This document shows positions 7,472-37,121 of a DNA stretch of 43,162 bases, one piece after another. This DNA comes from Hydrurus foetidus (Eukaryota). The notes beneath the pieces were generated by a model, which was not told the DNA's origin, searched no databases, and was given only the letters and a program-made list of their open reading frames with translations. The DNA lies in the NCBI GenBank assembly GCA_900617105.1, contig UYFQ01000507.1, positions 1 through 43,162 of the forward strand, written 5' to 3'. Each line of letters opens with the position of its first letter. Positions within the stretch are counted from its first letter, which is position 1. Both the position numbers and the translations under genes were made by a program.

Positions 7472-7658
7472 AATACGATTTTCTGAGATATTTTCCGCAT
7501 ACGGAATTTTGGACTCACGTTTTCCTTTGTACCCGCGGTCTTTGATGTCGCGAGTATCGCGATTTTCGTTGCGATCGGTGTCGCGATTGTCTTTGCGGTC
7601 GTTGTCGCGGTTGGACCGGTCGTTGTTGCGATTGTTGTTGTTGTTGTTGGCTTTGGCC

Positions 7659-7987
7659 TATGCTGTGTCACGGTTTCAGCAACTGGCTGAAGACGAAGCT
7701 TTGAGTTTCAAGTTGGGCAAATGGGCGCAACAGGTTGGCTTGTCAGTCAAATGGGACTGATCAAGGAGATTGGCTGACTCAATTGAGTCAAAGTTGGTTT
7801 GGGTGGTTTAATAACGGTAGTTAATTAAGGTGTGAAAGGAGTGCGAGATTAGAGCTATACGAGCACACTGCAACTTGAAGTTTCCGAACAATCAGAAATT
7901 GAAAACTGATTCGAAAACTAGTGGTTACAAGCAAAGTTCAATGTGACTGTACGTACGTGTGAGTAATATATAGTGGAGACTATAACA
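7659..7987 (-). repeat. 3' LTR of Gypsy B
   Basis: Direct repeat of 15286-15614; minus-strand ends TGTTA...CATA. Confidence 0.95.
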
Positions 7988-7999
7988 CCACCCCATTCC
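7988..7999 (-). promoter_or_regulatory. Polypurine tract of Gypsy B
   Basis: GGAATGGGGTGG immediately upstream of the 3' LTR on the minus strand. Confidence 0.7.
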
Positions 8000-8358
8000 G
8001 GATGAAAAGTGTGATTAGGGTTGGAAATGAATAAATACAAAGTCATTACTACATCTCTGTGAGTTCGTTTATGAAATTGTATCGCTATAATAGCTTAATT
8101 AAAAATAAGTGGTTGGGTGGAAGTTGACGGGTTCGAACCCCTGCAAAATGCAGCTGAAGTGAAAATTAGACCAACAGGTGTGGCGTAAAAATTTTTCATG
8201 GCACTTTTCAGGGCACGCCAGGAAATGTGACGTGGCTGCAAAATGGAAATTCCAAGAAACGAAAAATTTCGCGACGCGAAATACTCTACTACTCAGCACT
8301 CAGCACATATTGAAGTTACAACTTCACCAATACACTAGGAGGGTTACAATATAGCAAA

Positions 8359-8997
8359 ATGTCAGGTGAATTTCTTCCATCGAAGAATTTATGCATGGCG
8401 GCGGCAATGGTTCTACCGCTGTCAGCGGAGCAACAGCAGTGGATGAGGTTGGGCGATGACGCAGGCAACACATTCAAAAAATCATTGGGATTGAATATAG
8501 ACGACAAGCTTCATTACGGAGCATCTGTCGAAGACGCATCGACGTATCTGAAGTATGTGTGTGCTAGGAACAAAGAGCTTGGGATTAAGTTAAAGTACGA
8601 GTTTCGGAGAGTCACAGGAAGGCATGGAAAGAGCCGTCGGTGGAATGCACATTCGATAGAGAAGACAGTTGTAAACAAGAAGGGAATTTATGTGGTATAT
8701 GGCAAAGCAAAATGGTTGAACAAGTTGCACACGGCACTGTTGAAGAGGATTAAAAAAGCAAATTGCGTGGGTGAAGAATTGGAGATTTACAGCATGGTGG
8801 CCAAGGGATTAAGCAGGATGGATCACGCCATTAGCATTCGTAGTGATGAAAACGGCGTCAGAATTTTTGATAATGCATGCACTAATGGTAGCATTAAATA
8901 TAATGTTCTGAATTTGGCAAGCAAAATGATTGATTTGACGAATTGTTATTATTTCGATTTGTATGAGAAGGGTAACAAGTCAAAGATAATTAAGTAG
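8359..8997 (+). CDS. Antisense accessory ORF in Gypsy B, 212 aa, putative papain-fold cysteine peptidase
   Basis: Uninterrupted ATG-TAG ORF between pol and the 3' LTR; motifs KNLCMAAAM, DHAISIR and VRIFDN in papain-like Cys-His-Asp order; the product is inferred. Confidence 0.6.
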   Translation: MSGEFLPSKNLCMAAAMVLPLSAEQQQWMRLGDDAGNTFKKSLGLNIDDKLHYGASVEDASTYLKYVCARNKELGIKLKYEFRRVTGRHGKSRRWNAHSIEKTVVNKKGIYVVYGKAKWLNKLHTALLKRIKKANCVGEELEIYSMVAKGLSRMDHAISIRSDENGVRIFDNACTNGSIKYNVLNLASKMIDLTNCYYFDLYEKGNKSKIIK

Positions 8998-9609
8998 AGT
9001 TTATTTTAGGGGGCAAGCCCACATTTTGAATGCCGTCCTCACATTATAGCTTCGGCTATGCTTCAATGAGTTGGAAAAAAAATGTGGTCAAGCCTCAGAC
9101 GCTTGGTATTAGCTTATGGATGTCATCGGCGGATTACTTTAAGGTAAGAATTTGATAGATTGTTGTAAAATAAATTTAATTATTTATTTCACGTATGTAA
9201 CATATTTAAATTTGTTATTTTTAATTTTTAAAATGACTCATATAATTATTTTAAATTTGTCAAATGACCTATTTAATTGTTATAAATGTGCAGAATAAAT
9301 TATTTAATCATTTATAATGCGTATTTATGTCGTGTATAACTATCGTACAGTATGGAATTATTATTTCATGTGTGTAAATATATTTTGACATGCGTTATTA
9401 ATAACTTACACATAGAATACATGAAGTAAAATTGTTGTTTGACATGTTATGTGAATTGTATGATGTGTGTAGTTGTCAATTTATTAGTGTGATTGTGGAT
9501 AATTGAATTTCGATGTGTATGAATATTTATCAAATGGAAAACATGCAGAATAGTAATTTATTTATGTGTCATATGCATATTGAATACATATGAGTGTTGT
9601 CGTGTAGGA

Positions 9610-12600
9610 CTATTGTGTAGAATTAACATTGTTTGACATGTCATTTGCATGTAGATGTTTATTTGTATTGTCGTGGGACAAGATTAGACATATTGTTTGC
9701 ATATAAATAGTCATGTACAACTGACACTTTTTAACTTCTGCCCATGGCTCCCATGTGTCATGTTCTGATGAGTAGTTGTGCCACCTGATTAGGAATTCTA
9801 GACTTGTGACTCGTTTGGAATCTCCTCTGTGACTTATGACTGAATCAATAATGTACTCATCTCGATCGAGCAGTGCTGCTGAAGTCGCAGCATCGGAGGA
9901 ACCTACGAATGGGGTGACGCGGCTGGAGTGAAGCTTCGAGACAATATTCGTGATGACGTGTCTGCAGGTGATATCATTCTTAGTTTGCTTTATTACTTCG
10001 TAGGGCCCAAGAAGTTTCGGAGAAAGTTTAGTGGATCGAAACGATTGTGGGGTCTCAAGTGGATTCCACAGAAGGTAGTCTCCGGGTTGATATTTGTTGT
10101 GTGTCGGTGTTTTAGCTAGCCGTTGAAGGCGGAGAGTTTGTTGGTACGATGATGTTATGGATCGAACAACAGAGAGATTGCGGTCAAGAGCAATCACTAG
10201 ATCACCGTAGGAGTGACCTGGTGATAGAGGAGGAGGTAAGTGAAAGCGAGCGTAGTCACGAGTTCCGTATTTTAGTTCAGCTGGTGTTACACCGCCTATC
10301 TCTGCGTTAGGCATCGTCATCATTGCGTGATTGATGAGAGGGAGCACGGTATCTGAGGCCCATTTGTTGGTGAATCGCTCGTCATGGACGAGCCTGCGCA
10401 GATGCCCCAGAAAGAGGGCATTAACGTGCTCAGTGCCGTTAGACTCATGGCGTCCAACAAGAGATATGCGGTGAGGTATTCCAAGCCATCGATTAAGATG
10501 ATCGAGGATGTCGGCAGTGAAAGCACTACCGGGGTCGGAGTAAATGGAGTCGTATGTGCCAAAGGTACAGTAGTGCTTAAACAAGACAGTAGCGGCTGTG
10601 TAGGCACTGTAGTCTTTGACAGGATACGCTTGTGGGAATTTGGTATCAAGTTCAACAACGAGAAGTAGACCAATGTAGCCGTCTTCGTCAGCTGGAGTAA
10701 CAGAGACGTGATCGAACCCAATTGAACGAGGATGGTGGAATAATGTTTCCCGAATTTCGTTGTACGGGATGGTCTTCAAAGGAAGACGGTCCTTCTGACA
10801 GATGGGGCACTCATTCACAAGATCCTCGACGACACGTACAGAGATGCCGTGACCAGGGAATCGTCGACAGAGGGCGAGATAGGTACGTTTAGCACCGTGA
10901 TGTAGAGATCGGCCACCGTGTACCGCGTCGAACATGTCTTTAGTCGTAAGGGATTGTAACATGGGTGATAGAGTGGATGGTGGTTGAGTGAGAGGGTGCA
11001 TACGCGACAGCCAGTCTGCCACAGTGTTGTCCTTTCCAGGAATATGCTTAACAGTGAAGACATAACTTTGTAGGAGAACACGCCAGCGGACTACTATGGG
11101 AACTTGACTGGTCTCAATCCAGACTAAGTTTCTATGGTCAGTCTCCAGTAGGAATGACTTACCACGGAGGTAGTATCCAAACTGAGTTACAGCGTAGTAT
11201 AAGGCATACGCTTCTTTCTTGAATGTGTCCCAATTGACAGCGGCACCAGAGTACTTATGCGAGGCGAAGGCGATTGGCTGATGGATGATGGTGTCTTGGG
11301 AATCGGTGAACTCTTGAAACAGGACGGCTCCTACAGCATGGTCGGAGGAGTCGGATCGTATGATCCAAGGTAGTGTATAATCAGGGAAGTGCAATGTGAC
11401 TGAGTCAGTTATAGCGACCTTAAAGAGTTCGAAGAGATGTTCGTAGTCTTTAATCCATGTTGACTGATCCCAGTTAAAACCAGTGGCTGTGCACTCGTAC
11501 AAGGCAGACGCCCATGAGGCGAAGTTGGGAATATGTGTATGGAAGAAGTTGGCTGCCCCTAAGAAGCTTTGCATTTGCTTCTGTGATGTAGGGAAGATCA
11601 TTGATGAGATAGCGCTTTTCCTAGCATCAGAGAGTTGCCAAGATCCTGGATGCACTTCATAACCGAAGAATGTAACAATGTCGGTGCCTATCCAAGACTT
11701 TTTAATCTTTAAAACAAGTCCATTGCTTTGACAGCGAAGTAGTACTTTCCTCAGTTTGTTAAGAGCATCTTGATAGCCTGAGGCCAGTACTAAGAAGTTG
11801 TCGAAGATAACAATGATCCAGTCGTCAAAATCAGCAAAGATTCTACGAACTATAGACTGAAGTATACCAGATGCAGGTCCGACACCCTCAGGCAGAAACT
11901 TCGGTCGAAAGAGTCCCCAGGGTGTGGACACTGAGAGTAGGTTAGAACTGAAATCATCGATAGGTATTTGGTGGAAAGAGTTTGTCATATCAAGATCGAC
12001 AAACACTTTCCAGCCAGCAGCTTTCGCAAGAGATTGTTGGACATGGGGTATGGGCTCTTGCGGGATACTGATGTATGGATTGATGGGGCGATAGTCACCA
12101 CAGAGCCGAATGAATGGAGAGGTTGCTTTCGGTGCAATGACAAGTGGACAGGCTATTGGAGATGTCGATACTTCGTAGAAGTATGTGCGCATTCTATCAA
12201 ACTCTGCTTTGGCGTCTTGATACAAAGCTTGCCGGACAGGGCGGGCTCGAGCTCTTAGAACGTCAGGTATGCCAGGCTTTATGTCGAGATGACATGGAGC
12301 CATGTTTATTCCCTTCCATGTGCTCGGGACAAATACGTCGTGTGCAAGTTCAGATTGGAGTAGTTCCATAATGGCTGGACATGCAGCTCGTATTTGAGGA
12401 GTGACGTGGGTGGCAAGATCGGAAGTGTAGATTGCTCGAGCTTCCTTCAGTGTAGTGGAAAGGTAGGCGAGGATATCATCAGGAAAGCTGGTTGGGTCAG
12501 GAGTGTTTAGCTCTTCAGGTGCGAGGGAATCAATTGGCTTAGACCAGGGTTGCATCATATCACCAGGATCCGGACTACATAGGAGAGCGCTTAAGGCATC

Positions 12601-13389
12601 ATATCGAGTCTCTACACGATTGTCGGCGAAGACATGGCCAAGATGAGGATGTGTCAGTATATCTGTAGTTGTACCATCCTGAAGAGCAAGTAGCCCTATT
12701 CGGGTGCTGGCACTGTCGCATATCTTGTTTTTACGTTGATGGTAGGCGGCATTGTGGTGTTGGAGAGAACGAGTTGCTCGTTCAATATCCTTAAGATTGC
12801 ACTGACTGTGAAGTACTTGAATTTCGACTGTAAGATCTCTCAAATGTGTTTCAAGATCATTTGTGATCGAGAGTTCGCGAGATTGAGTCACGGAGTCTGC
12901 AAACAGATCATAGAAGGGGCCGATAAGGTCAACTAAGCCGATGATAATGTCATGACTAAGAACGTCGAGAACGCTATACCATAGACAGTGTTGGTGGTTG
13001 TTACTTGCGGAGTCAAGTATACCGACAGTAAGAGGAACCTCGAGCTCAATCGATAGGGAGCGTGCATCACCTAGGCGGACGATGCGATCAATGGAGCGAC
13101 TGAGGTCAGTGATAGTTGAAGGTAGGCGGTTATAAACGTCACGGGAGATAAAGTTACTTCCTTGAGCTCCTGTATCAAGTAGACCGCGATCGAATAGGAT
13201 TGGATCGGTATCAGTTATGATGATACCAGAGCGAATAAATGGTTGGCAAAGTGTCTGCGAGGGTGTTGAAGTAGCAGATGCTAGTTGGTTGAGTAAAGCT
13301 TCTGTAATAACGTTGTCGGGGTCAAAGACATTTGCGTGTTGGAGATCTGGGGGAGAGGCGAGGTGATCTTCCGTGTGCATTTCAGCCAT
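9610..13389 (-). CDS. Gypsy B Pol (PR-RT-RH-IN-chromodomain), 1259 aa
   Basis: LLDTGA; LCGDYR, DLDMTNSFHQ, VIFDN; SDSS/EAYA/TDH/ADWLSR; HGGRSLHHG..CPIC, FDH/SDPG; LLGPY; EYIIDSV..FLIRW..DTWEP. Confidence 0.95.
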   Translation of the reverse strand: MAEMHTEDHLASPPDLQHANVFDPDNVITEALLNQLASATSTPSQTLCQPFIRSGIIITDTDPILFDRGLLDTGAQGSNFISRDVYNRLPSTITDLSRSIDRIVRLGDARSLSIELEVPLTVGILDSASNNHQHCLWYSVLDVLSHDIIIGLVDLIGPFYDLFADSVTQSRELSITNDLETHLRDLTVEIQVLHSQCNLKDIERATRSLQHHNAAYHQRKNKICDSASTRIGLLALQDGTTTDILTHPHLGHVFADNRVETRYDALSALLCSPDPGDMMQPWSKPIDSLAPEELNTPDPTSFPDDILAYLSTTLKEARAIYTSDLATHVTPQIRAACPAIMELLQSELAHDVFVPSTWKGINMAPCHLDIKPGIPDVLRARARPVRQALYQDAKAEFDRMRTYFYEVSTSPIACPLVIAPKATSPFIRLCGDYRPINPYISIPQEPIPHVQQSLAKAAGWKVFVDLDMTNSFHQIPIDDFSSNLLSVSTPWGLFRPKFLPEGVGPASGILQSIVRRIFADFDDWIIVIFDNFLVLASGYQDALNKLRKVLLRCQSNGLVLKIKKSWIGTDIVTFFGYEVHPGSWQLSDARKSAISSMIFPTSQKQMQSFLGAANFFHTHIPNFASWASALYECTATGFNWDQSTWIKDYEHLFELFKVAITDSVTLHFPDYTLPWIIRSDSSDHAVGAVLFQEFTDSQDTIIHQPIAFASHKYSGAAVNWDTFKKEAYALYYAVTQFGYYLRGKSFLLETDHRNLVWIETSQVPIVVRWRVLLQSYVFTVKHIPGKDNTVADWLSRMHPLTQPPSTLSPMLQSLTTKDMFDAVHGGRSLHHGAKRTYLALCRRFPGHGISVRVVEDLVNECPICQKDRLPLKTIPYNEIRETLFHHPRSIGFDHVSVTPADEDGYIGLLLVVELDTKFPQAYPVKDYSAYTAATVLFKHYCTFGTYDSIYSDPGSAFTADILDHLNRWLGIPHRISLVGRHESNGTEHVNALFLGHLRRLVHDERFTNKWASDTVLPLINHAMMTMPNAEIGGVTPAELKYGTRDYARFHLPPPLSPGHSYGDLVIALDRNLSVVRSITSSYQQTLRLQRLAKTPTHNKYQPGDYLLWNPLETPQSFRSTKLSPKLLGPYEVIKQTKNDITCRHVITNIVSKLHSSRVTPFVGSSDAATSAALLDRDEYIIDSVISHRGDSKRVTSLEFLIRWHNYSSEHDTWEPWAEVKKCQLYMTIYMQTICLILSHDNTNKHLHANDMSNNVNSTQ

Positions 13390-13407
13390 GGAAGGCCTCG
13401 CGAACCC

Positions 13408-15132
13408 CTATTTCTGATATGGGCGCATCGGTGTTGACAATGGAGGAGGTCGTGCTGCTCCTGGCACTTGTGGGGGTCCATAGTGTTTGTATCCATGTGA
13501 GTTGCTCGTTTTAACTCCACTTATCGGTTCCTGTTTGGGTGGAGACCATGGTTCTAGCTGTCCGTGCAGTAGCAATTCACGCTTGGTGAGAAGCGAGAAA
13601 GACTGAATACAGCGTTCCTGGCCGGCGGTTGAGTGATCGAAGGTGCAGCCGGAATGTTGGCGAGCGCATTTGCCGTAGACGAATGCTTCACTGCAGTATC
13701 CACGGAAGGTTGCGGAAACAGCTGATCGGGACCGATGCTGATCGACATTGATCGCAAGAAGAGATTCATCCTCAGGGTCTAGTGTGTCGACACGATCCTG
13801 AGGTCTGTCTTCATGTACTTCATGAATCAGGTCATCTTCATCTTCGAGGTCTTCTTCGTTGCATGCATTCTCGGATGCATTGAACAGTGGGTTAGCAGAC
13901 GTTGCTAGCGACGAGAAGTTTGATTGTGGACGCTGATCGTATTTGCGAGGAGTGACAAATGGCTGACGACCTGTATTGGACACCTGATGTCGGGTATGAG
14001 ATTCGCCTTGAGTGTATCTCAGATCTTCGTAGCGAATAGGAGTGAGCCTGGCGTCCAAGTCCTGTCGTGCTTCGCTTTGAGCACGACCTTCCATTAGTCG
14101 AGCCCTAACAAACTTGACTGCTTGTTCTACAGACTTCTGCTTAATGAGCTCGTCCTTGCTGAGCCATTGTAAGATGGAGTCTTTCTGAGCACCAAGGGAG
14201 ATGAGCCACAAAGCGATTTGGCCAGGGCTGTCTCTTGTGCCGTAACCAGGTACTGGCATCTTGGATTTGTTGGCGCTGTGATTTGAGGTTTCTTCAGACA
14301 TCAGATCATGCAGATGGAGCAAGTCAGTGAGCGACTTCATTAGAGGGGCATAGAAGGTGCTAGAGAAGTTGTCGGTGCTGATTGATGGTGTCTGTGGTAT
14401 TCCTTTGCCAAGAAACAATATTAGTTCCTTGGAGTACAATTCTTTTGTTCGAGGTCGTGCAGCTTCCACGAGGATAGCTTGAACCTCGGAGTTGGTTAAA
14501 GATAACCAATCTTCTACCATGACCTCGTTTGGTTCGGCGCCAGTGATAACTGACTCTCGATACTGGTGTGAGTTCCATGATGCCAATACGTGAGGGCGCA
14601 GGTTGTATGAAACCATGTGGGCCATTTTGATTTCACGTCCTGGATATTTGGAGGAAAGCAATTGAAGTTGGCGAGAAAGGTACTGGAGGCCTTCTAGAGA
14701 ACTGATCTTGAGTTCCTTGTCGTAAACGATGTCAGCTTGGAGGACTTGGATGTTTGGTTTGGTCGGCATGTCTGGTCTATCAGTGTTGTCTGGAAGTGAT
14801 TCCAGATTGTTCGGTTGGTAGTGCGGCATGCCGAAGAACATCGATGATCTTCTCCCGCGATTGCGATCAGGAAGTGGAGTATCGATGAACTCATCACGTA
14901 GTGGAGATTTCAAGTTCGATTTCTTGATTTCCAGGATTGCGTCTTTGAGTTCGCGGATATCGGTGCGATGGCGAAATTGGATTTCGCTACTTGTAGCTAG
15001 GAACTGATGGAACATTTCCTTGAGCTCCAAGATAGGATCATCCGAAGGCTCATCCTCTGGATCTTTCTTTGGGATTCCTTGTCCTTCGGACATTGTTGAA
15101 GGATAGCAGCTGTAGATGTGGTCGATTTGCAA
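13408..15132 (-). CDS. Gypsy B Gag-like protein (probable start MSEGQG)
   Basis: 574-codon ORF between the 5' LTR and pol, in the same frame as pol; C-terminal C-x8-C-x6-C-x3-H. Confidence 0.85.
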   Translation of the reverse strand: MQIDHIYSCYPSTMSEGQGIPKKDPEDEPSDDPILELKEMFHQFLATSSEIQFRHRTDIRELKDAILEIKKSNLKSPLRDEFIDTPLPDRNRGRRSSMFFGMPHYQPNNLESLPDNTDRPDMPTKPNIQVLQADIVYDKELKISSLEGLQYLSRQLQLLSSKYPGREIKMAHMVSYNLRPHVLASWNSHQYRESVITGAEPNEVMVEDWLSLTNSEVQAILVEAARPRTKELYSKELILFLGKGIPQTPSISTDNFSSTFYAPLMKSLTDLLHLHDLMSEETSNHSANKSKMPVPGYGTRDSPGQIALWLISLGAQKDSILQWLSKDELIKQKSVEQAVKFVRARLMEGRAQSEARQDLDARLTPIRYEDLRYTQGESHTRHQVSNTGRQPFVTPRKYDQRPQSNFSSLATSANPLFNASENACNEEDLEDEDDLIHEVHEDRPQDRVDTLDPEDESLLAINVDQHRSRSAVSATFRGYCSEAFVYGKCARQHSGCTFDHSTAGQERCIQSFSLLTKRELLLHGQLEPWSPPKQEPISGVKTSNSHGYKHYGPPQVPGAARPPPLSTPMRPYQK

Positions 15133-15285
15133 AGACTTTTCAATTCAGCTCTCCTAGGGAATTCAATTTACCTCAGAGATTCTAAATCTCGCGGAGCCAG
15201 GGCGATCACTGCTTGCTGGCGGAAAGGAAAGAATCAACTGAGACTTAGACGTTGTCTCGTCTCGTGTAAACTAGAAATATATATT

Positions 15286-15614
15286 TATGCTGTGTCACGG
15301 TTTCAGCAACTGGCTGAAGACGAAGCTTTGAATTTCAAGTTGGGCAAATGGGCGCAACAGGTTGGCTTGTCAGTCAAATGGGACTGATCAAGGAGGTTGG
15401 CTGACTCAATTGAGTCAAAGTTGGTTTGGGTGGTTTAATAACGGTAGTTAATTAAGGTGTGAAAGGAGTGCGAGATTAGAGCTATACGAGCACACTGCAA
15501 CTTGAAGTTTCCGAACAATCAGAAATTGAAAACTGATTCGAAAACTAGTGGTTACAAGCAAAGTTCAATGTGACTGTACGTACGTGTGAGTAATATATAG
15601 TGGAGACTATAACA
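15286..15614 (-). repeat. 5' LTR of Gypsy B
   Basis: Direct repeat of 7659-7987. Confidence 0.95.
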
Positions 15615-15631
15615 GGCCTTGTTGTTCTTGC

Positions 15632-15727
<96 letters not shown>

Positions 15728-17706
15728 GGACTTGCGAGGGTCGTCTTTTGCAGCGGGACCCATGTCATTTTCGACGTCGTCGGTTGGGTAGACGTATGTT
15801 GCCGCGCCAGGATTGTTGGTTGTCCTGGTCATTTCGCCATTGAGTAGGACGTTTGGGACGAAATGGTCGTGGCCAATTCTCCTGAACTCTGTTGCCAACG
15901 TGGATTGACTCCACGTGGTATACGAGTTGTTGCAATGAGGATTCATGAAATTGCGACAATCGTAGCGATTGTGTCCTTGGCGACCGCAGGTGTGGCAATT
16001 ATCGATTGTTTTGCTCAGACCTGGGTAGGCGTCGGATTCGCGTTTGGGTATCGTGCGGTAGGAGGCGGAGAGCTGCGTTGTGTTGCTGGACGACAATGAG
16101 TCGGGGTGATTTTGGTCTCGAAGTCGTAAGCGAAGACCACCCATGTTGGACGCGTTGATAACTGTTTGCCGAGCTTCACTGAGGCAGAGATTCATTCGGC
16201 ACAACATGTTTGGGATGGAATCCTTTTGTTGTTTCTTGTTTTGTCCTTTGTAATGTTCATGAAGTTTTCAGTGAACTTATTATCAAGAGGGAGCTTTTTG
16301 TAGATGATCTTACAGATCTCATGTTGGCGGTCTGCAGGTATATTGTCGTAGCTGCCGTAGTATCCGAAGAGGATGTCTCGGAGTCGTGCAATTGCCGCCA
16401 ACTCTACGTTTGGGTTTTGCCATTTGATCTTCATTTGCCAGTTTTTCAGGGCAAGGTCCAAGTCATAGGTAGACTCTGTGGCGCGATCACTGAAGAATAG
16501 TTTCTTGAGATCGGTGGCCATGTCGCGAATGGACAGGAGTTTGTCGTCGATGATGGGCCAGGTTTGACACATTTTGATTGTGTATCCGAGAGTCTTTCGA
16601 TTTTGAAGGAGACTGTCTCGGATCACATGGACAGCTTCGTCTTCGATGAGATCCTTCCAAGGTGCATTAAACTGAGGGCGGTGCGCCTGTGTATAGAACT
16701 TTCGGGCTGTGCCGTCCATGTCCTTCAGTAATGTCTCACGTGTTACATAGAACACTTCCTTCATGTTGATGAGGGAGGTTGTGAGTGCTTGGGGTGTTCG
16801 TTGTTGTTCGAAGACTGTGTCAGCCTCTTCGGTTTTGCGCTTGCGGTTTGAAGTGGCAGCCGCTTTCGTGGAAGCTGTCGCTGACTTCTTTGCAGCTGCT
16901 ACCGTTGCTTTCGACGTTTTGGATCTGGTGGCACGCGTGGGTTTGTCTTCAGATTGGACGGCAGAGAGTTGTTTTGCCTCCCTTGTTTTGGCAAGGGGTT
17001 TGATTGGCATAGCCTTTTTCTTTTTCGGTTTTGGTGACGGTGGGGTTGACGCTTCCGACTCACTTTGATCTTCCTCGTCCGATTTGGACTTGGTATCGTC
17101 GGGGTTGTTGTCTTCCTCTTCGTCCTCGTCGTTGGTTTGTTCGTCTTCCGCCTCTTCCGAGGCGTTGTCAGACACCGAGACGTTATCATCGTCGGAGAGA
17201 ATTTCCTTCGGAGATATTTTGGTACCGATTTTGTCGTCGCCCTCTTCCGTTTGAGAAGGATTGATATCCTCTTCTTCTTCGGTTTGGGGTCGGATTGGAG
17301 AGCCATCCTCATCTGACTGAGGGTTTAGACTGTGTAAGTCATTTGTCTCTTGCATCCAGGCTGACAAGTCTTTCAGTTCTTGATCTTCGAGATCAGATCT
17401 GTTGTCAGCCTGTTCCTGCAGCACTTCAAGTCGCACGCGATTGCGTTCACGTTCTTGTTGTAGCTCCAGGAAGCGTGCTTCGTTTGCCGCCAATTCGTCG
17501 GATATGCGCGTATGGGTGCTCGAGGCTTTGATAGCCGATTTGCCCAGCGTCTTCATGGAGTTGGCTATATTGTCTTCTCGAGCGAGACGCTCGAGTTTAG
17601 CCTTCTCTTTATCCGATAGGAAGAGGATATTTTGGGGTTTGGAGCGTTTGGAAGACGAGCTAGCTTCGCTAGAGCTCTCTTTCTTGGTTTTTTGGGCCTT
17701 AACCAT
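15615..17706 (-). pseudogene. Gypsy A Gag (frameshift near 16200; continues below 7658)
   Basis: ORFs 16192-17706 and 15545-16207; CCHC knuckle CHTCGRQGHNRYDC; long charged low-complexity N-terminus. Confidence 0.8.
15619..15729. repeat. (TTG)n microsatellite in Gypsy A gag (poly-Asn/Thr)
   Basis: About 110 bp of TTG repeats; similar repeats continue at 7622-7649 on the other side of Gypsy B. Confidence 0.9.
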
Positions 17707-18259
17707 CTTGAAAACTTGGCGTGGGAATTCTCACTGGAACTCTGCGTCTTGGACAGCGACGGAACGCGGACGCGGTGATTCAGGGAAAAGAGGAGTAGGT
17801 TGTTCGAGGGTGAGGACTGGTAGGTAGGATGGGTAAGTGTGGTAGTAGGAGTCAGGGGATTGGAATGGTTTGGTGCGATTTCGGGAGGAAATCGCAACAA
17901 AATTTGGACGTGGGCGGCGGCTTCGTAAGGAACGAAGCTGGGCGTGGGCGCGTTGGATTTCGTTCGTGAACGAGTTTGGGAGGTGTTACTTGCTTGCAAG
18001 TTCCTTTCCTTCGTAAGCCTTCGCGTAGAAGAGCTGCATATTTTGGGAATAAATCGCCAATATTTGAGGTCGCGAACGACTACGATTCAGAGGCTGTCGC
18101 GTTGACGAGACCTTTGTAGTATCGTTTGGGGTGGTTTTCACTCTTGGAGAGTTACTCAACTTGTTCCTCAGACTGTTTTACGGTCGTTGCGGGATTTTTT
18201 GTTGGACGTTTGGTCAACTTGGATCTTAGAGATCGCTAGCTGGTTCCAAATACCGGTAT

Positions 18260-18476
18260 TGTGGCCTTGCCAGGATCTGGGCACTGGGAGCGGGTCAGCT
18301 GGGAGCGGGAGCAAGGGAAAGGAAGCTGGGAGAGCTATTGCTATGGAAACAATGTGGTTAGCTTACAGATAAACACAGCAGGTATCATGGCAATGAATCG
18401 GATGGATCGGATCGTCCTCGATCCGGTCCGAACGTACGCCTGTACCCGTACAGCCCGTACGGGTGTGCGGGTCACA
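18260..18476 (-). repeat. 5' LTR of Gypsy A (217 bp)
   Basis: Direct repeat of 3704-3918. Confidence 0.95.
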
Positions 18477-19255
18477 ACTCTTTTAGGTGGTATCTAACTC
18501 CTCTGTAAGGGGTCAAAACATGCTCACTTAAAGCGTAACATGCATCGCCCAAGTAGTACTTACTAGGCAGTAACGGTAATCCTCTGCCTTTAGAATCATC
18601 AAAAACACGACTGTGTGTGCTAACCCTCCCAACCGAATAGAACAAAGGCAAAAGTAAGGTCAAAATTAGATACTCCTAGCACATTCTGGGTGATAACTTT
18701 TTTCCTATTTCGGTAAGCCTCTTGATCTACGATAGGAATACAAGCAGGAATATGCGTACCATCCAGAGCTCCGATGCAATTATCGAAAAATGGTGAAAAC
18801 TTCGCGGAAGTAGCTATTTGAGACGGTGCTGGTGCACCAATAATTGAAGGCTGGAATACGATTCCGCTGCAACCGATGAGCGCATCGCTTGCCTCGTGAA
18901 TAATCTTCGAAATAGTAGAACCACTGTGTTGCCACCTTTCCTTTATTTGGCGATTGGTATAACCCCTCAGAACTTGCACTAAAACCATGATTTTTTGACC
19001 TGCACAAATATACAAAGAGTCCTCGAGACCATCAGCTTCCATCATCATAATTCTTAATTTAATAAATGTTGATCGATCCATTCTTGCAACCTCGTGAAAC
19101 CTGTGCACGTTGTACGTCTCCATGACTTCAGCAAAGTACAGCTGACCAGTCAAAACAGAGGTGTGTTGGAGTACAGGATTTCGCGCGACATTTTGCAGCG
19201 CACCGACTACGGCAGTGACAACAACTATTGCTTGAAGACCATCATCTTCTTCCAT
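18477..19255 (-). pseudogene. Harbinger transposase (DDE_Tnp_4/HARBI1-like), N-terminal part
   Basis: RMDRSTF, ERWQHSGSTIS, CIGALDGTHIP, QNVL, GWEG (frameshift), YYLGDACY, TPYRGVRYHLKE. Confidence 0.92.
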
Positions 19256-19840
19256 TGCGAAAATATGGATGATACAGTAACACGAGGTGTGCTATCGTGC
19301 TATCTAACGTGCAAGCTATACGTCTTCTAATCTGCGGTTCAACGGTAATTTGGTGGTGTGTCTGTTGTCTGACTCTTAGTCCCCCATTTTTTAAAATTTG
19401 TCCGTTGTCCGAATTCCGGACCCCCCAAAGTTTTTGAAACCGTTCGGTAAATCGAACCCCAAACTATTTTCGTGAAAAATTCAACTTTCCGAAAGTTGAA
19501 ACGGGGGGTCAGATTCAACTTTCGAAAAAACGAGGGTTTTTCCGTGAAATTTACCGAACGCACCTGAAACCTCAGAATCTGAGGTTTCGTTTTCAAGATT
19601 CCAGAATAGTAATTTCGACCCGAGGGGCGCAGCCCCGAGGGATGAAACAATGTAGCCGATTTTACAGTGTCGAGGGTCGAATATTACTTTTTGTTCCGAG
19701 AGATCCTTTAAGTCCCGTTACGGTCATCTTCTGCTGTTGTATTTCTTGCTTAGCTCTAATTTGCTTAGTCGATTTTTAAAGATTTTGAAAGAAATTTTGG
19801 TCTTTTTGGGGTGGATTTAATTATTTTCATATCATTAAAA

Positions 19841-21521: not shown

Positions 21522-21776
21522 TTCTGTGTTATTACGCATTGACTCCAAGTTGCAGTTTAGTATGAGTGGTTGTGTATTGCGTAATTGTACCTTTCAGGAT
21601 GCTTCTTTTTCATGCCACCGAAGTGTTTTTGAGCCTGCTGTCGTTTTACGGTATTCAAAACGGTTTCTACGACGCGTAGCGTCGTTCTGGCGCGGATCCT
21701 TTTCGACCCGCGCGTGAAAACGGTGAAATCTGGCCGGAAGCTCATGACCGGAAAGGGCGCTGGGGCCTTGAGGATA

Positions 21777-22380
21777 AATAGTAATTTCGTACCGAGACCA
21801 CAAAACAGTGGCGTTTTTCGTACCGAGAGGCTCTTTTCGAACCTCGGACTGGGGCCGATACCCGTATAAGAGTCTTTATAGGGCTCCAGGTGGATAATAG
21901 TAATTTCGTACCGAGACATAAACAGAGGCGTTTTTCAGAGGTTCGAAAGAGCAGAGGTTTCATGGTCGAGCGTTTATCGTACCGATGCTCGCTTGTTGCA
22001 CGAGAAGAGCCGAGGTTTCATGGTCAAGCGACAACGTTACTTTATCCACGGTGAGACCGATGCTCACAGCGGTACTGACACTTGCAGGGTATCCGAAGGT
22101 CACAGTCGCTACCGAGGAGGCGTTTTTCGTAAAGGCTGAGTTCATGGTCGAGCGTACGAACGTTACTTTATCCACCGTGAGACCGATGCTCACAGCGTTA
22201 CGAAAAGGTAGACTGATACTCACAGCGGCCATCATTTTTTTTTCGACCGCTGTGACCTTCGGTCTACCTTCTCGTACCGCTGTGGTCGATCTACCTTTCA
22301 TACCAGCGGTTTGAAAAACTCAAAATTTAGGGGGAGCCGATACCCGTATAAGAGTCATTACAGGGCTTCAGGTGGATAAA
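21777..22380. repeat. Modular repeat mosaic related to 35790-37121
   Basis: Shared modules ATAGTAATTTCGTACCGAGAC, TTCATGGTCGAGCGTACGAACGTTACTTTATCCACCGTGAGACCGATGCTCACAGCG and GCCGATACCCGTATAAGAGTC. Confidence 0.85.
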
Positions 22381-29967: not shown

Positions 29968-30128
29968 GCTTTTTCAAATCGATGACGTTATCTTGCAAGG
30001 AGGTGCGGTAGATTTGGCAAGAATTGCTTGTGTTTCGCTCCAAGATAAAATGTTTGCCATAACAGCATGACGGCAAAGTTGAAAGTTGATGTTACACTTC
30101 CAGTTGTTTGTGAATAGGGTGTTTGCGC

Positions 30129-30469
30129 TGTTGGAGATATCGTAGTTTATGACACGGACACAATCAGTGTACTTATGCATTCGTACGGTCGTACGGATTA
30201 ATTTGTGTGTGTGTGTGTGTGTGTGTGTGCGTACATGCGTGACGACGATGAATGGACCCGTGCATCGTCTCTGTACTTCAAGCGTAGTGTAGAATGTCTT
30301 TTGTTGTTGCGTTGAAAGGGACTCGGGGACTTCAGCAGGGATGAAGCACAGTCAATTAACAAGTGTTTACTGCCATACAAGAGCTTATTTCACGAGTCCT
30401 GACCGAGTGACCTTCAACCACAGTACAGCGAGAGGCGTACGTGTGGGCCGAACCGAAGATCCGTCAACA
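30129..30469 (+). repeat. Copia 5' LTR (341 bp, contains (TG)n)
   Basis: Matches the 3' LTR except at the TG tract. Confidence 0.95.
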
Positions 30470-30472
30470 TAA

Positions 30473-33400
30473 TTGACTGCCACAGGCATTCCGATGCCTC
30501 CCAAACGCGCCGCAGAAGCTTTCAAAAGTACAGAGGAGTGTATGCTTCAATACGGCAAACACAACAACATTATCAAATGGAGAGAACACATGCAAACGGT
30601 TGTAACCGAACTATACGGGATAGTTGGCATGTTCTTCACAACAAATGTGAGATACGAGCTCCCGAGAGTTTCTTACAGGGATTACCCTGCAGATTCGTCA
30701 TCGGAAAGCTCCAGTTCCGAAGAAGACGACGAGATAGCCGAAGGTCAACAGGAACAACCGCCTGACCCAGAGACCGTGGCGTACGCCGCCGCGAGGCCTG
30801 CTCGCATCGCCGCCAGACAGGCGAGGAACGAGAGGAGGCGTAAAGCGTCAGAACGCTCTAGAGCAAAATTTAAAGAAGATGATTACATACAGAGAAAGAG
30901 GGACATCAAAACGCAGAAAGAGAACGAACGTACGATGTACCCGATGATGTGGAAGCGCATGTCGCTGCTATCACAAAGTAGGGTGAGGGAGGAGGAAGAT
31001 TTCAAGACAGCATATGACACCCTGGACTGTGTCATGTTGTGGACGCTCATAAGGAGGACTCACCTCACACACATGTACGGGGGCGATGAGACACTGCAGG
31101 AGTACAACCAACACGAACAGGAGAGTAAGTACGGCTCAATGAGGCAAGGTGAGAGAGAGCACATTGTCACCTTCAAGAACAGATTCGATGAACAGGTAAC
31201 CGCGAACGCTGCTGTCGGAATCGCTGCGGTGACAGAGTCGAAGCGAGCATTGGATTTCCTAGGGAAGCTCGACACTCGAAGGTACAAGATCATGCTAGAC
31301 GACATGAAGCATGACGCCTTACGACGCAAACCAGGGGCGTTCCCAACCACACTCGCCCTAGCTTTCCACATCGCCTCAGAGTGGAATGACCGAGTCCCTG
31401 CATCCACACCCACACCGACACCGGCGGGTGCGAACGCAGCGTACGTGACCGAGGGAGTCCACGTCACAGCGGCCAAGGACCCGGAAAAGAAAGCGGGGAA
31501 AGCCGGAGGTGGCAGCAAGAAATCCTTAGCAGACGTCGAGTGCTACAAATGCGAAACAATGGGACACTACGCGCGGAACTGCCCACAGAAGAAATCGTCG
31601 TCATCGGAAAAAGTCCACGTCACGGTGGAAGAGTCAGACGAAGAATACGAAGGAGAGTCGAGCGAGTGGGGTGTAGCTCTCGTCACTGGCGATGAAATAT
31701 GCTGCTTCTCCAGATTCGACGTGCTGTTAGACAACGAGGCCTCGCTGAACATATTCAATAACGCTGAACTACTTACTGACCTGAGGAAGTCGCAGTCGAC
31801 AATTCGAGTGAGCGGTATCCAGCAAGGAGGAGGAGTGAGCGTAGATCGGGAAGGGGAGTTCGGAGAGTTCGGCACAGTGTACTACAGTAGTTCGGCATCG
31901 GCAAACATCCTGTCATTCGCGTCGCAGGTCGACTCAGGTGCGTCGATCAGATATGACCACCTGAGCGACTGCTTCACTCTTAGTCCGAAGAGCAGCACGA
32001 GGATCTATCGGTTCGGGAGAAAGCGAGTCATAGGAAGCGAGGGGAGGTTCTACTCGTGCGACTGGAGGGATGTCGAGCACGACAAAGCGTTAGTAACTAC
32101 GGTGGTTGAGAATCTGAAAGCGTTTACGAAACGAGAGATCGAGCAGGCGAGACGAGCTCGTGAGCTGCTCGCTAGGATGGGCTTCCCGACGGTGGAACAG
32201 GCGATGTCGATCGTGAACAGCGGAAGCAACTTCGACATTACGGCGAGAGATTTCCAGATCGCTGATGCGATATGGGGCAAAGATATAGCCTCTATAAAAG
32301 GGAAAACAGTGAAGAGAGCTACTGCTATCGCTGATATTACAGTCAGCACGAAACTAATGCAAAGGGATCAGGTGCTGTCTATCGACATTATGTTCATAGA
32401 CAAACTAGCGATACTAGTTGGGGTATCTACACCACTGGGACTAACTATTGCATATAGCCTAAACACAGCAGATTTAACAAAGCCAGCAAGGACAGCAGCC
32501 CAAGTAAAGATCGGGATAAACCATTTTATCGCAGTCCTCGCTGCGCAAAACTTCAGGACCTCCATAATCATGAGCGACGGAGAGGGGGCTGTCAAGAGTC
32601 TCATTGACGAGCTGGGAAGGCTCGGTGTGGAGGTTGACGTCAGTGGAGCCGGCGGCCACGTCGCTAGGATTGAGAGAAAAATTCGCATTGTTAGAGAACG
32701 GGTACGATGTCACGTAGCGTACCACCTTCCGTTCACACTATCGACGGTGGGTATCGCCATGCTCGTACTGTACTGTATATCCAGGCTGAACTACGAACCG
32801 GCCGGATTACGGGAATGGGGCCCGAGTCCGCGTGAAGCATACATCGGTAGGAAGCCTGATGGTAAGAGAGACTTTAGATGCTCTTTCGGAGATTATGTGC
32901 AATGTACCGTTCCTAACACTGACTCAGGATTCAAGAGCCGAACCGAGGACTGTGTGGTTATGCTCCCCCTCGGAAATCGCACGGGCTCAGTGAGAATGCT
33001 TTCGCTCAGCACAGGAAGACTAGTGAACAGGGACCAATTCAGAGTGCTACCGATGCCCGAGTCCGTTATAAAGAGACTAAATGAACTCGCACATGCAGAT
33101 GGTAGAGTAAAAGGGAAGGGTGATCTGTACGCACGGCCCACGTCGTACGAGCAGTACGGGAACGCTGCCAAGGGACTGCCCGACACGATGGAACCCAACG
33201 TCAACAACGGTGTGGATCCATCGATAGAACCTCTAGATGACGACCGTGAGACTAGAAACGAAGAGGTAGACAACGGTGACCAGCATCAAGACAATGGAGG
33301 AGAATTGGGTGAACAACAGTACGACAACGGCGAAGCACCGAACGAGGTAGACCCGAGGGACGATAGTGAACCATACGAGGAAGCGGTACAGGCCGAACAA

Positions 33401-33556
33401 CCTGAAGAGCGCGACAATGATATAGATGATCTGATCGATAGTATGAACCGGATGCGAGCTGGGCCGAGGGACCAAGTTGAAGATCCCACGGGGGGACTAG
33501 ATGAGAGAGGAATACCGGAGGACTACATATCGACAGACGGGAGACCAGACGAGTAA
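30473..33556 (+). CDS. Copia Gag-protease-integrase (probable start ATG at 30494)
   Basis: CYKCETMGHYARNC; VLLDNEAS; SIDIMF, MSDGEG, HVARIERKIR. Confidence 0.9.
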   Translation: MTATGIPMPPKRAAEAFKSTEECMLQYGKHNNIIKWREHMQTVVTELYGIVGMFFTTNVRYELPRVSYRDYPADSSSESSSSEEDDEIAEGQQEQPPDPETVAYAAARPARIAARQARNERRRKASERSRAKFKEDDYIQRKRDIKTQKENERTMYPMMWKRMSLLSQSRVREEEDFKTAYDTLDCVMLWTLIRRTHLTHMYGGDETLQEYNQHEQESKYGSMRQGEREHIVTFKNRFDEQVTANAAVGIAAVTESKRALDFLGKLDTRRYKIMLDDMKHDALRRKPGAFPTTLALAFHIASEWNDRVPASTPTPTPAGANAAYVTEGVHVTAAKDPEKKAGKAGGGSKKSLADVECYKCETMGHYARNCPQKKSSSSEKVHVTVEESDEEYEGESSEWGVALVTGDEICCFSRFDVLLDNEASLNIFNNAELLTDLRKSQSTIRVSGIQQGGGVSVDREGEFGEFGTVYYSSSASANILSFASQVDSGASIRYDHLSDCFTLSPKSSTRIYRFGRKRVIGSEGRFYSCDWRDVEHDKALVTTVVENLKAFTKREIEQARRARELLARMGFPTVEQAMSIVNSGSNFDITARDFQIADAIWGKDIASIKGKTVKRATAIADITVSTKLMQRDQVLSIDIMFIDKLAILVGVSTPLGLTIAYSLNTADLTKPARTAAQVKIGINHFIAVLAAQNFRTSIIMSDGEGAVKSLIDELGRLGVEVDVSGAGGHVARIERKIRIVRERVRCHVAYHLPFTLSTVGIAMLVLYCISRLNYEPAGLREWGPSPREAYIGRKPDGKRDFRCSFGDYVQCTVPNTDSGFKSRTEDCVVMLPLGNRTGSVRMLSLSTGRLVNRDQFRVLPMPESVIKRLNELAHADGRVKGKGDLYARPTSYEQYGNAAKGLPDTMEPNVNNGVDPSIEPLDDDRETRNEEVDNGDQHQDNGGELGEQQYDNGEAPNEVDPRDDSEPYEEAVQAEQPEERDNDIDDLIDSMNRMRAGPRDQVEDPTGGLDERGIPEDYISTDGRPDE

Positions 33557-35344
33557 AGCGAAGCGAGAGGAGCAGTGAGCCGAGCAACGGAGCTGCTCGC
33601 TGCGCCTGCACCACGCTACGGGATAAGTAGACATGAGGTGATGGACTTTTTTAGGAACGGTGGTGGAACCGCACTTCTAACGCGCAACTACGACGGTGAC
33701 GGTGCAGACTGGGGAGACTATGTACTGAACATATCGGTTAACGAAGCGCTGAGGACCAGGGGTGATGCGGCGCTGAGTGTGATTGAAAAAGAGCTAAAGC
33801 AGATGATCGATAAGAAGGTGTGGGCACCTGTCTCTGTGAGCGACCTATCAACGGAGGAGAAGCACCGAATCATCAGGTCAAGCATGTTCCTGAAGGAGAA
33901 ATTCCTCGCGAGCGGGGAGTTCGAGAAGCTTAAGGCGAGGCTGGTCGCCGGAGGGAACCAGCAGGATCGAGATCTATACGATGATCTATCAGCACCGACA
34001 GTCGCGACGAGCTCAGTGTTCACACTGCTGAGCATAGCAGCGCACGAGAATAGGATGATCACAGTGATTGACATCAGCGGCGCATTCCTCAATGCGGACA
34101 TGGATACGGGACTAGCGGTGCACATGAGGTTAGATAGGAACATGTCGAACATTATGACTAAATTGGCTCCCCATTACTCGCGCTTCACAGATCATAAGGG
34201 GTGCATAGTGGTGAAGCTGGACAAGGCACTGTATGGGTGTGTGGAGTCGGCTGCACTATGGTACGAGAACCTGAGAGCGAGCCTGTCCGATTTGGGATAC
34301 TCACCTAATGCACACGACATGTGTGTCTTCAACAAACACGACGAGTACGGGGTGCAATGCACTATCGCGGTGCACGTAGATGATCTGATGATCACTAGCG
34401 CGAACGGTAAAATGATCGAGTCGGTGTCGGCCGGTCTGATTAAAAGGTATGGAGACATTACAAGGAAAAATGGACCTATTGTGAATTACCTAGGCATGGT
34501 GTTCGACCTTACCACTGCAGGCAGTGCGCGAGTGTCGATGACAGGATACGTGGAGGACATGCTGAGGGAAAGCGGCACAACAGGGGGTGCAAGGACCCCA
34601 GCAACGGAGGGGCTGTTCGATGTGAGAGACGACAGCGACATGGCGAGTGAGGAGCAGCGGATACGGTTCCACAGATTGGTGGCAAAAATGCTCTACCTGG
34701 CGAAGCGTGCGAGGCCAGACTGTCTGACGGCGGTGGCATATCTGGCAACACGGGTAACACGGTGCAGCGTGGACGACCTTGGGAAGCTTGAGCGTCTGTT
34801 GAAGTATGTGAACAACACGAAGGATAGAGGTATAGTGTTCGAGGCGGGTGCAAAGGGAATCGTCGTGAGTGTTCTCATCGATGCGGCATACGGAGTACAT
34901 CCGGACGGGAGGTCGCACACGGGGAGCTGTGTGGTGATCGGAACAAGGGGTGCGGTGCACAGCAAATCGGCAAAGCAACAGATCGTCACCAAGTCGAGTA
35001 CGGAGGCGGAGCTCGTTGCATTATCTGACTCAACTAACCAAGCGCTTCACATGAGACACTTCATTATAGGACAAGGACACACGTGCGGACCAGTGACAGT
35101 GTACCAAGACAACATGTCATGCATGTCACTGATCGAGAGAGGGCGGTCAGCGGCGGAGCGGACGCGCCATATCGCCATCAGATACTTTTGGCTGAAGGAA
35201 AGGGTGGATCAAGGAGAAGCGAGAGTGCGACACCTGGGGACCAAGGAGATGTACGCGAACCTTCTGACGAAGCCGCTACAAGGTGCACAGTTCAAGTGCG
35301 AGAGACAAGGGCTTACGGGATGGGACGCGAGCACAGTAGTTTAG
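33557..35344 (+). CDS. Copia reverse transcriptase-RNase H, in frame with the upstream ORF after one TAA
   Basis: KARLVAGG, DISGAFL, KALYG, HVDDL, YLGM, IDAAY, SSTEAE, QDN, RHIAIRY, LTKPL. Confidence 0.93.
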   Translation, partial: SEARGAVSRATELLAAPAPRYGISRHEVMDFFRNGGGTALLTRNYDGDGADWGDYVLNISVNEALRTRGDAALSVIEKELKQMIDKKVWAPVSVSDLSTEEKHRIIRSSMFLKEKFLASGEFEKLKARLVAGGNQQDRDLYDDLSAPTVATSSVFTLLSIAAHENRMITVIDISGAFLNADMDTGLAVHMRLDRNMSNIMTKLAPHYSRFTDHKGCIVVKLDKALYGCVESAALWYENLRASLSDLGYSPNAHDMCVFNKHDEYGVQCTIAVHVDDLMITSANGKMIESVSAGLIKRYGDITRKNGPIVNYLGMVFDLTTAGSARVSMTGYVEDMLRESGTTGGARTPATEGLFDVRDDSDMASEEQRIRFHRLVAKMLYLAKRARPDCLTAVAYLATRVTRCSVDDLGKLERLLKYVNNTKDRGIVFEAGAKGIVVSVLIDAAYGVHPDGRSHTGSCVVIGTRGAVHSKSAKQQIVTKSSTEAELVALSDSTNQALHMRHFIIGQGHTCGPVTVYQDNMSCMSLIERGRSAAERTRHIAIRYFWLKERVDQGEARVRHLGTKEMYANLLTKPLQGAQFKCERQGLTGWDASTVV

Positions 35345-35410
35345 TTAAATTATTAAGACAACATATGCGTGATGTGTGAATAGAAATGATTGTGATGTGG
35401 CATAGGGGTG

Positions 35411-35749
35411 TGTTGGAGATATCGTAGTTTATGACACGGACACAATCAGTGTACTTATGCATTCGTACGGTCGTACGGATTAATTTGTGTGTGTGTGTGT
35501 GTGTGTGTACGTACATGCGTGACGACGATGAATGGACCCGTGCATCGTCTCTGTACTTCAAGCGTAGTGTAGAATGTCTTTTGTTGTTGCGTTGAAAGGG
35601 ACTCGGGGACTTCAGCAGGGATGAAGCACAGTCAATTAACAAGTGTTTACTGCCATACAAGAGCTTATTTCACGAGTCCTGACCGAGTGACCTTCAACCA
35701 CAGTACAGCGAGAGGCGTACGTGTGGGCCGAACCGAAGATCCGTCAACA
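35411..35749 (+). repeat. Copia 3' LTR
   Basis: Direct repeat of 30129-30469. Confidence 0.95.
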
Positions 35750-35789
35750 TGCGCTTCCAAATTTCCACCGATTTAGGCCAGACGCACGC

Positions 35790-37121
35790 AATAGTAATTT
35801 CGTACCGAGACCATAAAACAGAGGCGTTTTTCGTACCGAGGGCGCAGCCCGAGGTTCGAAAAGAGCCGAGGTTTCATGGTCGAGCGTACGAACGTTACTT
35901 TATCCACCGTGAGACCGATGCTCACAGCGGTACCGAGGTTCGAAAAGAGCCGAGGTTTCATGGTCGAGCGTACGAACGTTACTTTATCCACCTGGAGCCC
36001 GATAAAGACTCTTATACGGGTATCGGCCCCCCTTCACATTTTGAGTTTTTCGTATCGCTGGTACGAAAAGGTAGACTGACACTCACAGCGGTAGGAAAAG
36101 GTTGACCGAAGATCACAGCGGTACGAAAAAAAAAATTATTGACCGCTGTGAGTGTCAGTCTACCTTTTCGTACCGCTGTGAGCATCGGTCTCACGGTGGA
36201 TAAAGTAACGTTCGTACGCTCGACCATGAAACCTCGCAGGGGTTGCACGATTGACAGACCACATTCCAGTCAACTCCGGCTTTTTTGATACAGTCACAAA
36301 CAGTAAGAAAATCACTTTTGAATGGGGTCTTTTCAGAGCAAACTTTCACACCAGAGATAGCTCGAGCTATGAAGAAAGTATCTCGACCTCAGTAATTCGA
36401 CCATGGTAAGTTTAGTGGCTGAGTTAGTTTTCAATGAAAATGCTTCAAAAAATTGCAAAGTGGGTCTCCGCACCGTGCATTCAAATTTTCATCATCATTT
36501 TCGGTCATAACTCAACAACCAGAGAAGTTGCGGGTGATTTTAAGATTGATTCTTCTCTAGTATAGTAGTAGAATTATTCTGTGATAGCTGGTGCAGTTTT
36601 AATGCTCGGGCTGCAAAGTTGATTTTTGACACTCCTGTACCACACTTTGGTGTCCAGAGAGCCCCTCCACCGAGTCAGCTTGATCGCCGGAGACTGTCGA
36701 AGACTTGATCTACTCTAGTCTACTCTCTTATAGGGGGATATCAAGTCTTCGACAGTCTCCGGCGATCAAGCTATCGGTAGTCTGAAAATGTGCCTCAACT
36801 TTGGCACGAGCTGCACCAGCTAACAGAATAATTACGAAGAATCAACTTGGTTTTGACCGAAATGATGATAATGCACAGCAATTTCTGACTATCGTCACCT
36901 GAGGTCGAATACTTTCTTCATAGCTCGAGCTATCTCTGGTGTGAAAGTTTGCTCTGAAAAGACCCCATTCAAAAGTGATTTTCTTACTGTTTGTGACTGT
37001 ATCAAAAAAGCCGGAATGTGGTCTGTCAATCGTGCAACCTCTCGGCTCTTTTCGAACCTCGGGCTGCGCCCTCGGTACGAAAAACGCCTCTATTTTATGG
37101 TCTCGGTACGAAATTTCTATT
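35790..37121. mobile_element. Foldback element with ~80-bp TIRs sharing Crypton-like terminal motifs
   Basis: AATAGTAATTTCGTACCGAGACC...GGGCGCAGCCCGAGGTTCGAAAAGAGCCGAG and its reverse complement at 37041-37121; no TSD seen. Confidence 0.75.
36237..37040. mobile_element. Nested MITE with ~150-bp TIRs and inner inverted repeats
   Basis: 36241-36391 is the inverse of 36900-37039; inner IR AGCTTGATCGCCGGAGACTGTCGAAGACTTGAT near 36677/36740; CTCG duplicated at the flanks. Confidence 0.75.

Follow-up and report, generated by a model that had tools for sequence, protein, structure and literature searches.

Priming by a tRNA is treated as the rule among LTR elements, and self-priming is proven for Tf1 and predicted for the plant Copia lineage TAR. 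The available part of the Tf1 literature describes an 11-nt primer and an RNase H cut (PMC7175516). For plants, the accessible sections of Neumann et al. 2019 predict self-priming for 12% of elements, including the whole Copia TAR lineage, with Houba and Osr-1 cited (PMC6317226); self-priming in Copia is therefore not new as such, and the premise of the initial annotation that Copia elements are described as tRNA-primed was wrong. A different arrangement is given in the available text of Donnart et al. 2017 for the fungal GalEa elements, in which a Conserved Hairpin Site pairs with a partner 12-41 nt downstream and there is no LTR complement (PMC5445492). For the CoDi elements of diatoms, the text of Maumus et al. 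2009 as available does not treat priming: the word "tRNA" does not occur in it and "PBS" appears only as a buffer (PMC2806351). Two further papers, also available in part, provided background only (PMC5029228, PMC3599244). In the literature searched, which covered few subscription papers, no description of self-priming turned up for Copia of diatoms or other protists; it may be noted in GyDB, in Repbase or in the supplements of PMC6317226 and PMC2806351.

The window analysed here is a stretch of 43,162 nt from Hydrurus foetidus, and the element under study (the focal Copia, 30129-35749) carries the TG...CA LTR pair, target-site duplication and purine tract of a Ty1/copia element. Its features are as follows.

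30124..30128, no strand: 5' target-site duplication TGCGC, identical to the five bases at 35750-35754
30129..30469, + strand: 5' LTR, 341 nt, TGTTG...CAACA, from alignment to the 3' LTR
30300..30373, + strand: conserved core of the LTR (likely containing promoter, start site and primer), with a depth peak and no substitution among the 40 of 42 rows listed
30347..30350, + strand: initiator-like CACA, predicted +1 at 30349 (alternative 30348), fitting CAY(+1)A; relatives have TCAHW here
30349..30358, + strand: predicted self-primer CAGTCAATTA, perfect complement of the primer-binding site; 3' LTR copy at 35629-35638
30470..30479, + strand: putative primer-binding site TAATTGACTG, offset 0 after the LTR, complement of 30349-30358
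30494..33556, + strand: gag (zinc knuckle)-protease-integrase frame, from a zf-CCHC match and motifs in the translation
33557..35344, + strand: reverse transcriptase-RNase H frame, in frame behind the TAA; Pfam RVT_2, E 3e-28
35400..35410, + strand: polypurine-tract position, ending GGGGTG and directly adjoining the 3' LTR
35411..35749, + strand: 3' LTR, 339 nt, from alignment to the 5' LTR
35750..35754, no strand: 3' target-site duplication TGCGC, identical to 30124-30128

The two LTRs differ by one substitution and a 2-nt indel that lies within a TG run. Their alignment, together with TGCGC on either flank, fixes 30470 as the first base after the 5' LTR, and the near-identity of the LTRs and the duplication indicate that the insertion is young. 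The gag frame starts 24 nt past the 5' LTR. RVT_2 is matched with a weak score of 99 bits, and the Pfam search of the element returned no match to gag, rve, SH3 or pre-integrase, a profile that differs from that of plant Copia, in which matches to these four are strong. Pfam and PDB searches likewise returned no integrase (rve) match. In the translation, read by eye against known motifs, we take LDNEAS to be the protease and a D..D..E pattern to be the integrase; nothing integrase-like was seen downstream of RNase H. One cluster of look-alikes of the integrase region has gag_pre-integrs in 21% of its members, and the look-alike clusters with a recorded phylum are diatom, with one member each. 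In relatives, GGGGTG or GGAGTG precedes TGTTG at the 3' LTR boundary. The focal Copia is present in sequencing runs from metagenomes of freshwater, sediment and air, and in a run from one coded organism.

The gag-protease-integrase frame is closed by an in-frame TAA (33554-33556). Because this stop lies between integrase and reverse transcriptase, the focal copy would need read-through or reverse transcriptase supplied by another copy. Close relatives (65-79% identity) have one frame of about 1,600 aa spanning the position and, being uninterrupted, indicate that the TAA is not a fixed feature. Among the 85 N-terminally complete relatives in the set P0001-P0120, full-length frames number 43; of the others, 18 break off in the integrase-RT linker (aa 870-1075), 10 in a twice-longer stretch past the linker and 14 before it. 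With 43 of 85 full-length, we rejected the idea that the TAA is programmed throughout the clade. Stops may be more frequent in the linker, where that of the focal Copia lies, in counts that pool contig ends with stops.

The rest of the window holds other repeats. An older Gypsy element (3704-18480, - strand) with a TGG-type site after its LTR carries, nested in its CAA repeat, a chromodomain Gypsy (7659-15614, - strand) whose LTRs are about 99% alike, whose LTR end is CA or CAT with no TGG site, and which has an in-frame stop between gag and pol (13408-13410). Self-priming of these two Gypsy elements was considered and rejected, the best match being a run of 8 nt, all A/T, near the LTR start. 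Immediately to the right of the Copia lies a nested inverted-repeat (foldback/MITE-like) element (35790-37121) with related copies 14 kb away (21776-22380), and a long AAAATC hexamer array, satellite or telomere-like, runs from 39900 to the window end at 43162. A frame at 18620-19291 (- strand) contains GALDGTHIP, which we take to be a PIF/Harbinger transposase motif; it has no Pfam match at E 0.001.

At the junction of the focal Copia, the initial annotation had described a 10-nt exact reverse complement and the absence of a TGG primer-binding site, and both descriptions are borne out: CAGTCAATTA (30349-30358) and TAATTGACTG (30470-30479) are complementary over all 10 nt, and no TGG occurs at or near the LTR junction. 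The duplex is bounded by mismatches, A30348/C30480 outward and A30359/A30469 inward. When the LTR was dinucleotide-shuffled 20,000 times, 5 shuffles gave a complement of at least 10 nt at offset 0 and 52 did so at offsets 0-5; across the element, a 10-nt complement in the LTR exists for 4 of 4,911 internal positions, the primer-binding site among them. The focal match is real and is unlikely for one element; alone it is not decisive in a genome-wide scan.

Relatives for comparison came from a scan of prokaryote genome bins, which gave 26 loci representing eukaryote LTR contigs mis-binned in MAGs, and further bin searches added more. Many eukaryotic LTR-element contigs were seen in the prokaryote bins G001, G002, G003 and G013 (43 matches in G001 and 52 in G013), and these are contamination of species-representative MAGs. 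A metagenome scan gave 4 loci, all of one family with a Gag identity of 23%; a search across 401 genomes around G002 recovered, besides the locus already known, two weak matches only, and no relative was found in the viral contigs scanned. Every clade locus holding an LTR-gag junction was scored, the first matches having been noticed by eye. Left out were the family duplicates L002, L012 and L042 (of which L002 and L042 were scanned and agree), the decayed L003/L004, L037 and L007, whose LTR is cut by a contig end and for which their bins offer no copy of greater length, and loci without a junction. L102, which resembles another element type, was set aside.

Blind scans, in which any position in the 150 nt before gag was compared with the upstream sequence and the LTR end was not supplied, placed the start of the best complement at the LTR end or one base before it in 14 of the 14 intact sequences of the clade that have sufficient LTR. 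Nine sequences (L001, L002, L011, L018, L023, L029, L061, L092 and L094) gave 15-17 nt, reached in 0 of 300-400 shuffles, and five (the focal Copia, L042, L013, L015 and L016) gave 9-10 nt, reached in 9-69 of 400; these short matches are weak singly (12 of 400 shuffles for the focal Copia, 19 for L016 and 69 each for L013 and L015). When the search was anchored at the junction, 13 of 13 families had 9-16 nt, with 0-13 of 3,000 shuffles doing as well, and the anchored match of L027, tested against its 3' LTR, was equalled in 8 of 2,000. The LTR end is fixed independently in 8 of the 13 families (by a terminal repeat, a second LTR or a target duplication); in L011, L029, L061, L092 and L094 the terminal repeat is imperfect and the LTR end was accepted partly because it adjoins the match.

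The letters of the match differ from family to family. Each of the 12 further families has its own distinct primer site of 9-16 nt, complementary to its own LTR from the LTR end, and the sites of the 13 families vary in all of the first 9 columns. Matches to the own LTR of 9-16 nt compare with a mean of 4.1 nt over 156 non-cognate pairs, 2 of which reach 9-10 nt, one being the focal site paired with the LTR of L015. Between junction and initiator, the runs of the 8 long families consist of Watson-Crick pairs alone. Among controls, 8 other Copia elements with a readable LTR end had 4-7 nt at offsets 0-5, and in blind scans 13 other Copia and 5 other LTR elements had 6-10 nt, matched by 16-295 of 300 shuffles, with LTR ends established for not all of these and two best matches following a CA. 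In the decayed L003, which has stops in gag, the match is lost and the best run is 8 nt elsewhere (233 of 400 shuffles). The covariation of primer-binding site and LTR site proposed in the initial annotation as a check was thus found in 13 of 13 testable families and, at the level of sequence, supports the self-priming signature claimed there. Because distant relatives match themselves in different letters, the group likely starts copying from the predicted first bases of its own RNA. The focal primer 10-mer also occurs in the L015 LTR, apart from L015's own site, and in L013 the complement of the L015 site is found a few bases downstream of that family's own site; these stray matches are chance, or relics of older primers.

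Among close relatives the picture is one of conservation. Contigs of 7 runs were aligned to the focal Copia at 80% likeness, and summed contig depth peaks over 30311-30362. Substitutions among the 40 of 42 rows listed fall at 30374-30449 and at 30480, 30482 and 30483, with no substitution in either duplex arm among the rows listed. The arms of close relatives are mostly invariant, which is conservation and not covariation, with only a hint of compensation: loose contig ends suggest a sister family with one extra A in the primer and one extra T in the site, on separate contigs, and a G inserted after 30353 has no partner among the rows listed.

In most families the upstream limit of the pairing coincides with a candidate start site. 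Nine of the 13 have a TCA at a distance of 15-16 nt from the paired 3' end, and all nine fit TCAHW, with pairing beginning at H or the preceding A. According to the available part of one paper, TCAHW is an initiator-like consensus proposed for diatoms with +1 at H, and CAY(+1)A is an older form quoted for diatom genes (PMC4686930). TCA is missing at this spacing in the focal Copia, L013, L015 and L027, and the last three have no initiator-like motif there at all. In the focal element the predicted +1, 30349, is the first paired base of the duplex, and the start near 30349 proposed in the initial annotation agrees with the initiator-like CACA there.

Folding from the predicted start formed the duplex in 12 of 12 families folded, with a predicted mean pair probability of 0.83-0.99; the focal duplex is 10 bp at about -11.6 kcal/mol. 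It is lost from the predicted fold when the RNA starts at or before 30310 and would need a start at about 30330 or later. When the RNA is extended to 30600, the predicted probability of the focal duplex is 0.15-0.35 for starts at 30347-30349, and for a start at 30349 it falls from 0.97 to 0.15 as coding RNA is added. A three-duplex "pretzel" like that of Tf1 was not apparent, single-sequence folds giving varied multi-branched loops in which no common pattern was visible by eye. In three families, inspection by eye showed a hairpin immediately upstream of the primer.

Taken together, we assign a probability of roughly 85% to the reading that the focal Copia, a recent insertion with a putative primer-binding site exactly complementary to part of its own LTR, starts reverse transcription independently of tRNA, the predicted first ~10 bases of its RNA folding back and serving as primer after a predicted cut. 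Transcription would begin at 30349 (or 30348), and the 5' end of the RNA would pair with 30470-30479 over a 111-nt loop. By analogy with Tf1 only, the element's RNase H would cut behind A30358, freeing a primer 3' end that reverse transcriptase would extend across U5 and R; the R copy of the 3' LTR would serve for strand transfer. Runs that are purely Watson-Crick as far as the initiator suggest that the primer site is re-copied from the primer; re-templating in every cycle would produce gap-free Watson-Crick covariation.

The same complementarity might be used by a primer from elsewhere in the element's RNA. An LTR copy at the RNA 3' end, or one on another RNA, whose end falls at the site or is produced there by a cut, could take the place of the 5' end, and the primer sequence is indeed also present in the 3' LTR, with an AATTAA hexamer at 30354 overlapping the primer in the 5' copy. 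However, neither AATAAA nor ATTAAA occurs in the focal LTR, and in 9 of 13 families the initiator-like TCA marks the limit of the pairing, a point at which a 3'-end primer would have no reason to stop; we consider this reading improbable. About as improbable is a role of the pairing in the 5' leader (packaging, dimerisation or translation control), with priming by another route, as is left open for the fungal GalEa. The data are structural alone, the gag ATG follows 14 nt after the end of the duplex, and the folds have no Tf1-like three-duplex pattern in common by eye, all of which would suit a leader function, but the pairing begins precisely at the edge of the LTR, the required position of a primer 3' end, no second primer site is visible, and the 8 long families are purely Watson-Crick all the way from junction to initiator.

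A host tRNA half (a fragment ending CAGUCAAUUA) or another small RNA might instead prime, as in copia, Osser and Bianca, the LTR match then being incidental. A missing TGG is compatible with half-tRNA priming, which the accessible sections of Neumann et al. report for Copia lineages (PMC6317226), and three other internal positions of the focal element also have 10-nt LTR complements. Yet tRNA-type sites are conserved within lineages, while the 13 families here all differ and each matches its own LTR; with no TGG and a site that is not conserved across the clade, the element lacks the marks of a tRNA-primed Copia, and we regard this as the least probable of the three alternatives, at about half the weight of either of the others. 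A hairpin of the fungal type downstream of the junction was also sought in the focal Copia and rejected, there being no pairing partner downstream.

RT-RNase H trees were built (FastTree, 67 rows; IQ-TREE LG+G4, 31 rows; both unrooted). A branch with support of 100/98 separates the 11 self-matching rows that include RT from 8-11 non-matching rows, with RT identities of 28-57% among the self-matching rows; L092 and L094, which have too little RT, were placed by Gag or RNase H similarity. The focal Copia, L013, L015 and L016 form one sub-branch (98/98), all with 9-10-nt matches, and most other self-matching rows have 14-16 nt, with 9 nt in the long-branched L027. The self-priming trait likely belongs to the whole of this deep protist Copia lineage, and the duplex is likely 14-16 nt in most of its branches and 9-10 nt in the focal sub-branch. 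We also lean, with distinctly less assurance than for the focal element, towards the fuller reading of a deep protist Copia lineage that is widespread, entirely tRNA-independent and separate from both plant TAR and Tf1/sushi, in which the primer would be cut from the first bases after the initiator, the site re-templated in each cycle, and the primer of the focal sub-branch shortened to 9-10 nt.

An origin independent of Tf1 is plausible; the trees, unrooted and without named TAR, CoDi or Tf1 sequences, do not count origins. An ancestral self-primed precursor has been suggested, in the available part of Benachenhou et al. 2013 (PMC3601003). If self-primed, the present lineage would either bring the separate occurrences of the mechanism in LTR elements to three or be a relic of that ancestral state, and a third diverse lineage would make the origin of priming testable, as repeated invention by Copia-type RNase H against an ancestral self-primed state. 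The focal RT is matched by 52,370 library proteins, 4,325 of them at E<=1e-30, not all of which belong to the clade. The sequence rule predicts the start site of each family, tRNA-based finders would miss such elements in algae, and an escape from tRNA-fragment control would be implied.

Among described Copia elements, the focal Copia resembles the TAR members Houba, Osr-1 and Fourf in having a complement of at least 10 bp that starts 0-5 bp after the LTR, as set out in the available sections of PMC6317226, where TAR is a plant lineage inside the GyDB Tork clade. The focal lineage is probably separate from plant TAR and protist/diatom-related, in trees with no TAR or named CoDi sequence. What is new is the shorter duplex of 9-10 nt in the focal sub-branch. 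Like the focal element, CoDi of diatoms is a protist Copia, and the tree joins the focal Copia with L018 and L023, whose RT-RNase H motifs we take to be CoDi-like; RT identity to these two is only 37-41%. With GalEa the focal element shares the lack of a tRNA site and a self-pairing sequence at the LTR junction (PMC5445492, available text), but its partner is located within the LTR, 111 nt upstream, with none downstream. L088 and L089, Copia elements outside the clade, have a hairpin right after the LTR, placed like the GalEa Conserved Hairpin Site and with a compensatory change between them by eye.

Comparison with Tf1/Tf2 of Schizosaccharomyces pombe and the Tf1/sushi group reveals the same layout in a different type of element. 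In both, the primer-binding site directly follows the 5' LTR and is complementary to the predicted first bases of the RNA, yet Tf1/sushi elements are Ty3/gypsy chromoviruses, whereas the focal Copia has RVT_2, a putative integrase placed before RT by its motifs, and no chromodomain match. Primer cleavage is proven for Tf1 only and is predicted in the focal Copia. The pairing, 10-11 nt in the focal Copia and 14-16 nt in its relatives, compares with 11 nt in Tf1 as given in the available parts of the sources (PMC7175516, bioRxiv 10.1101/2022.12.06.519325).
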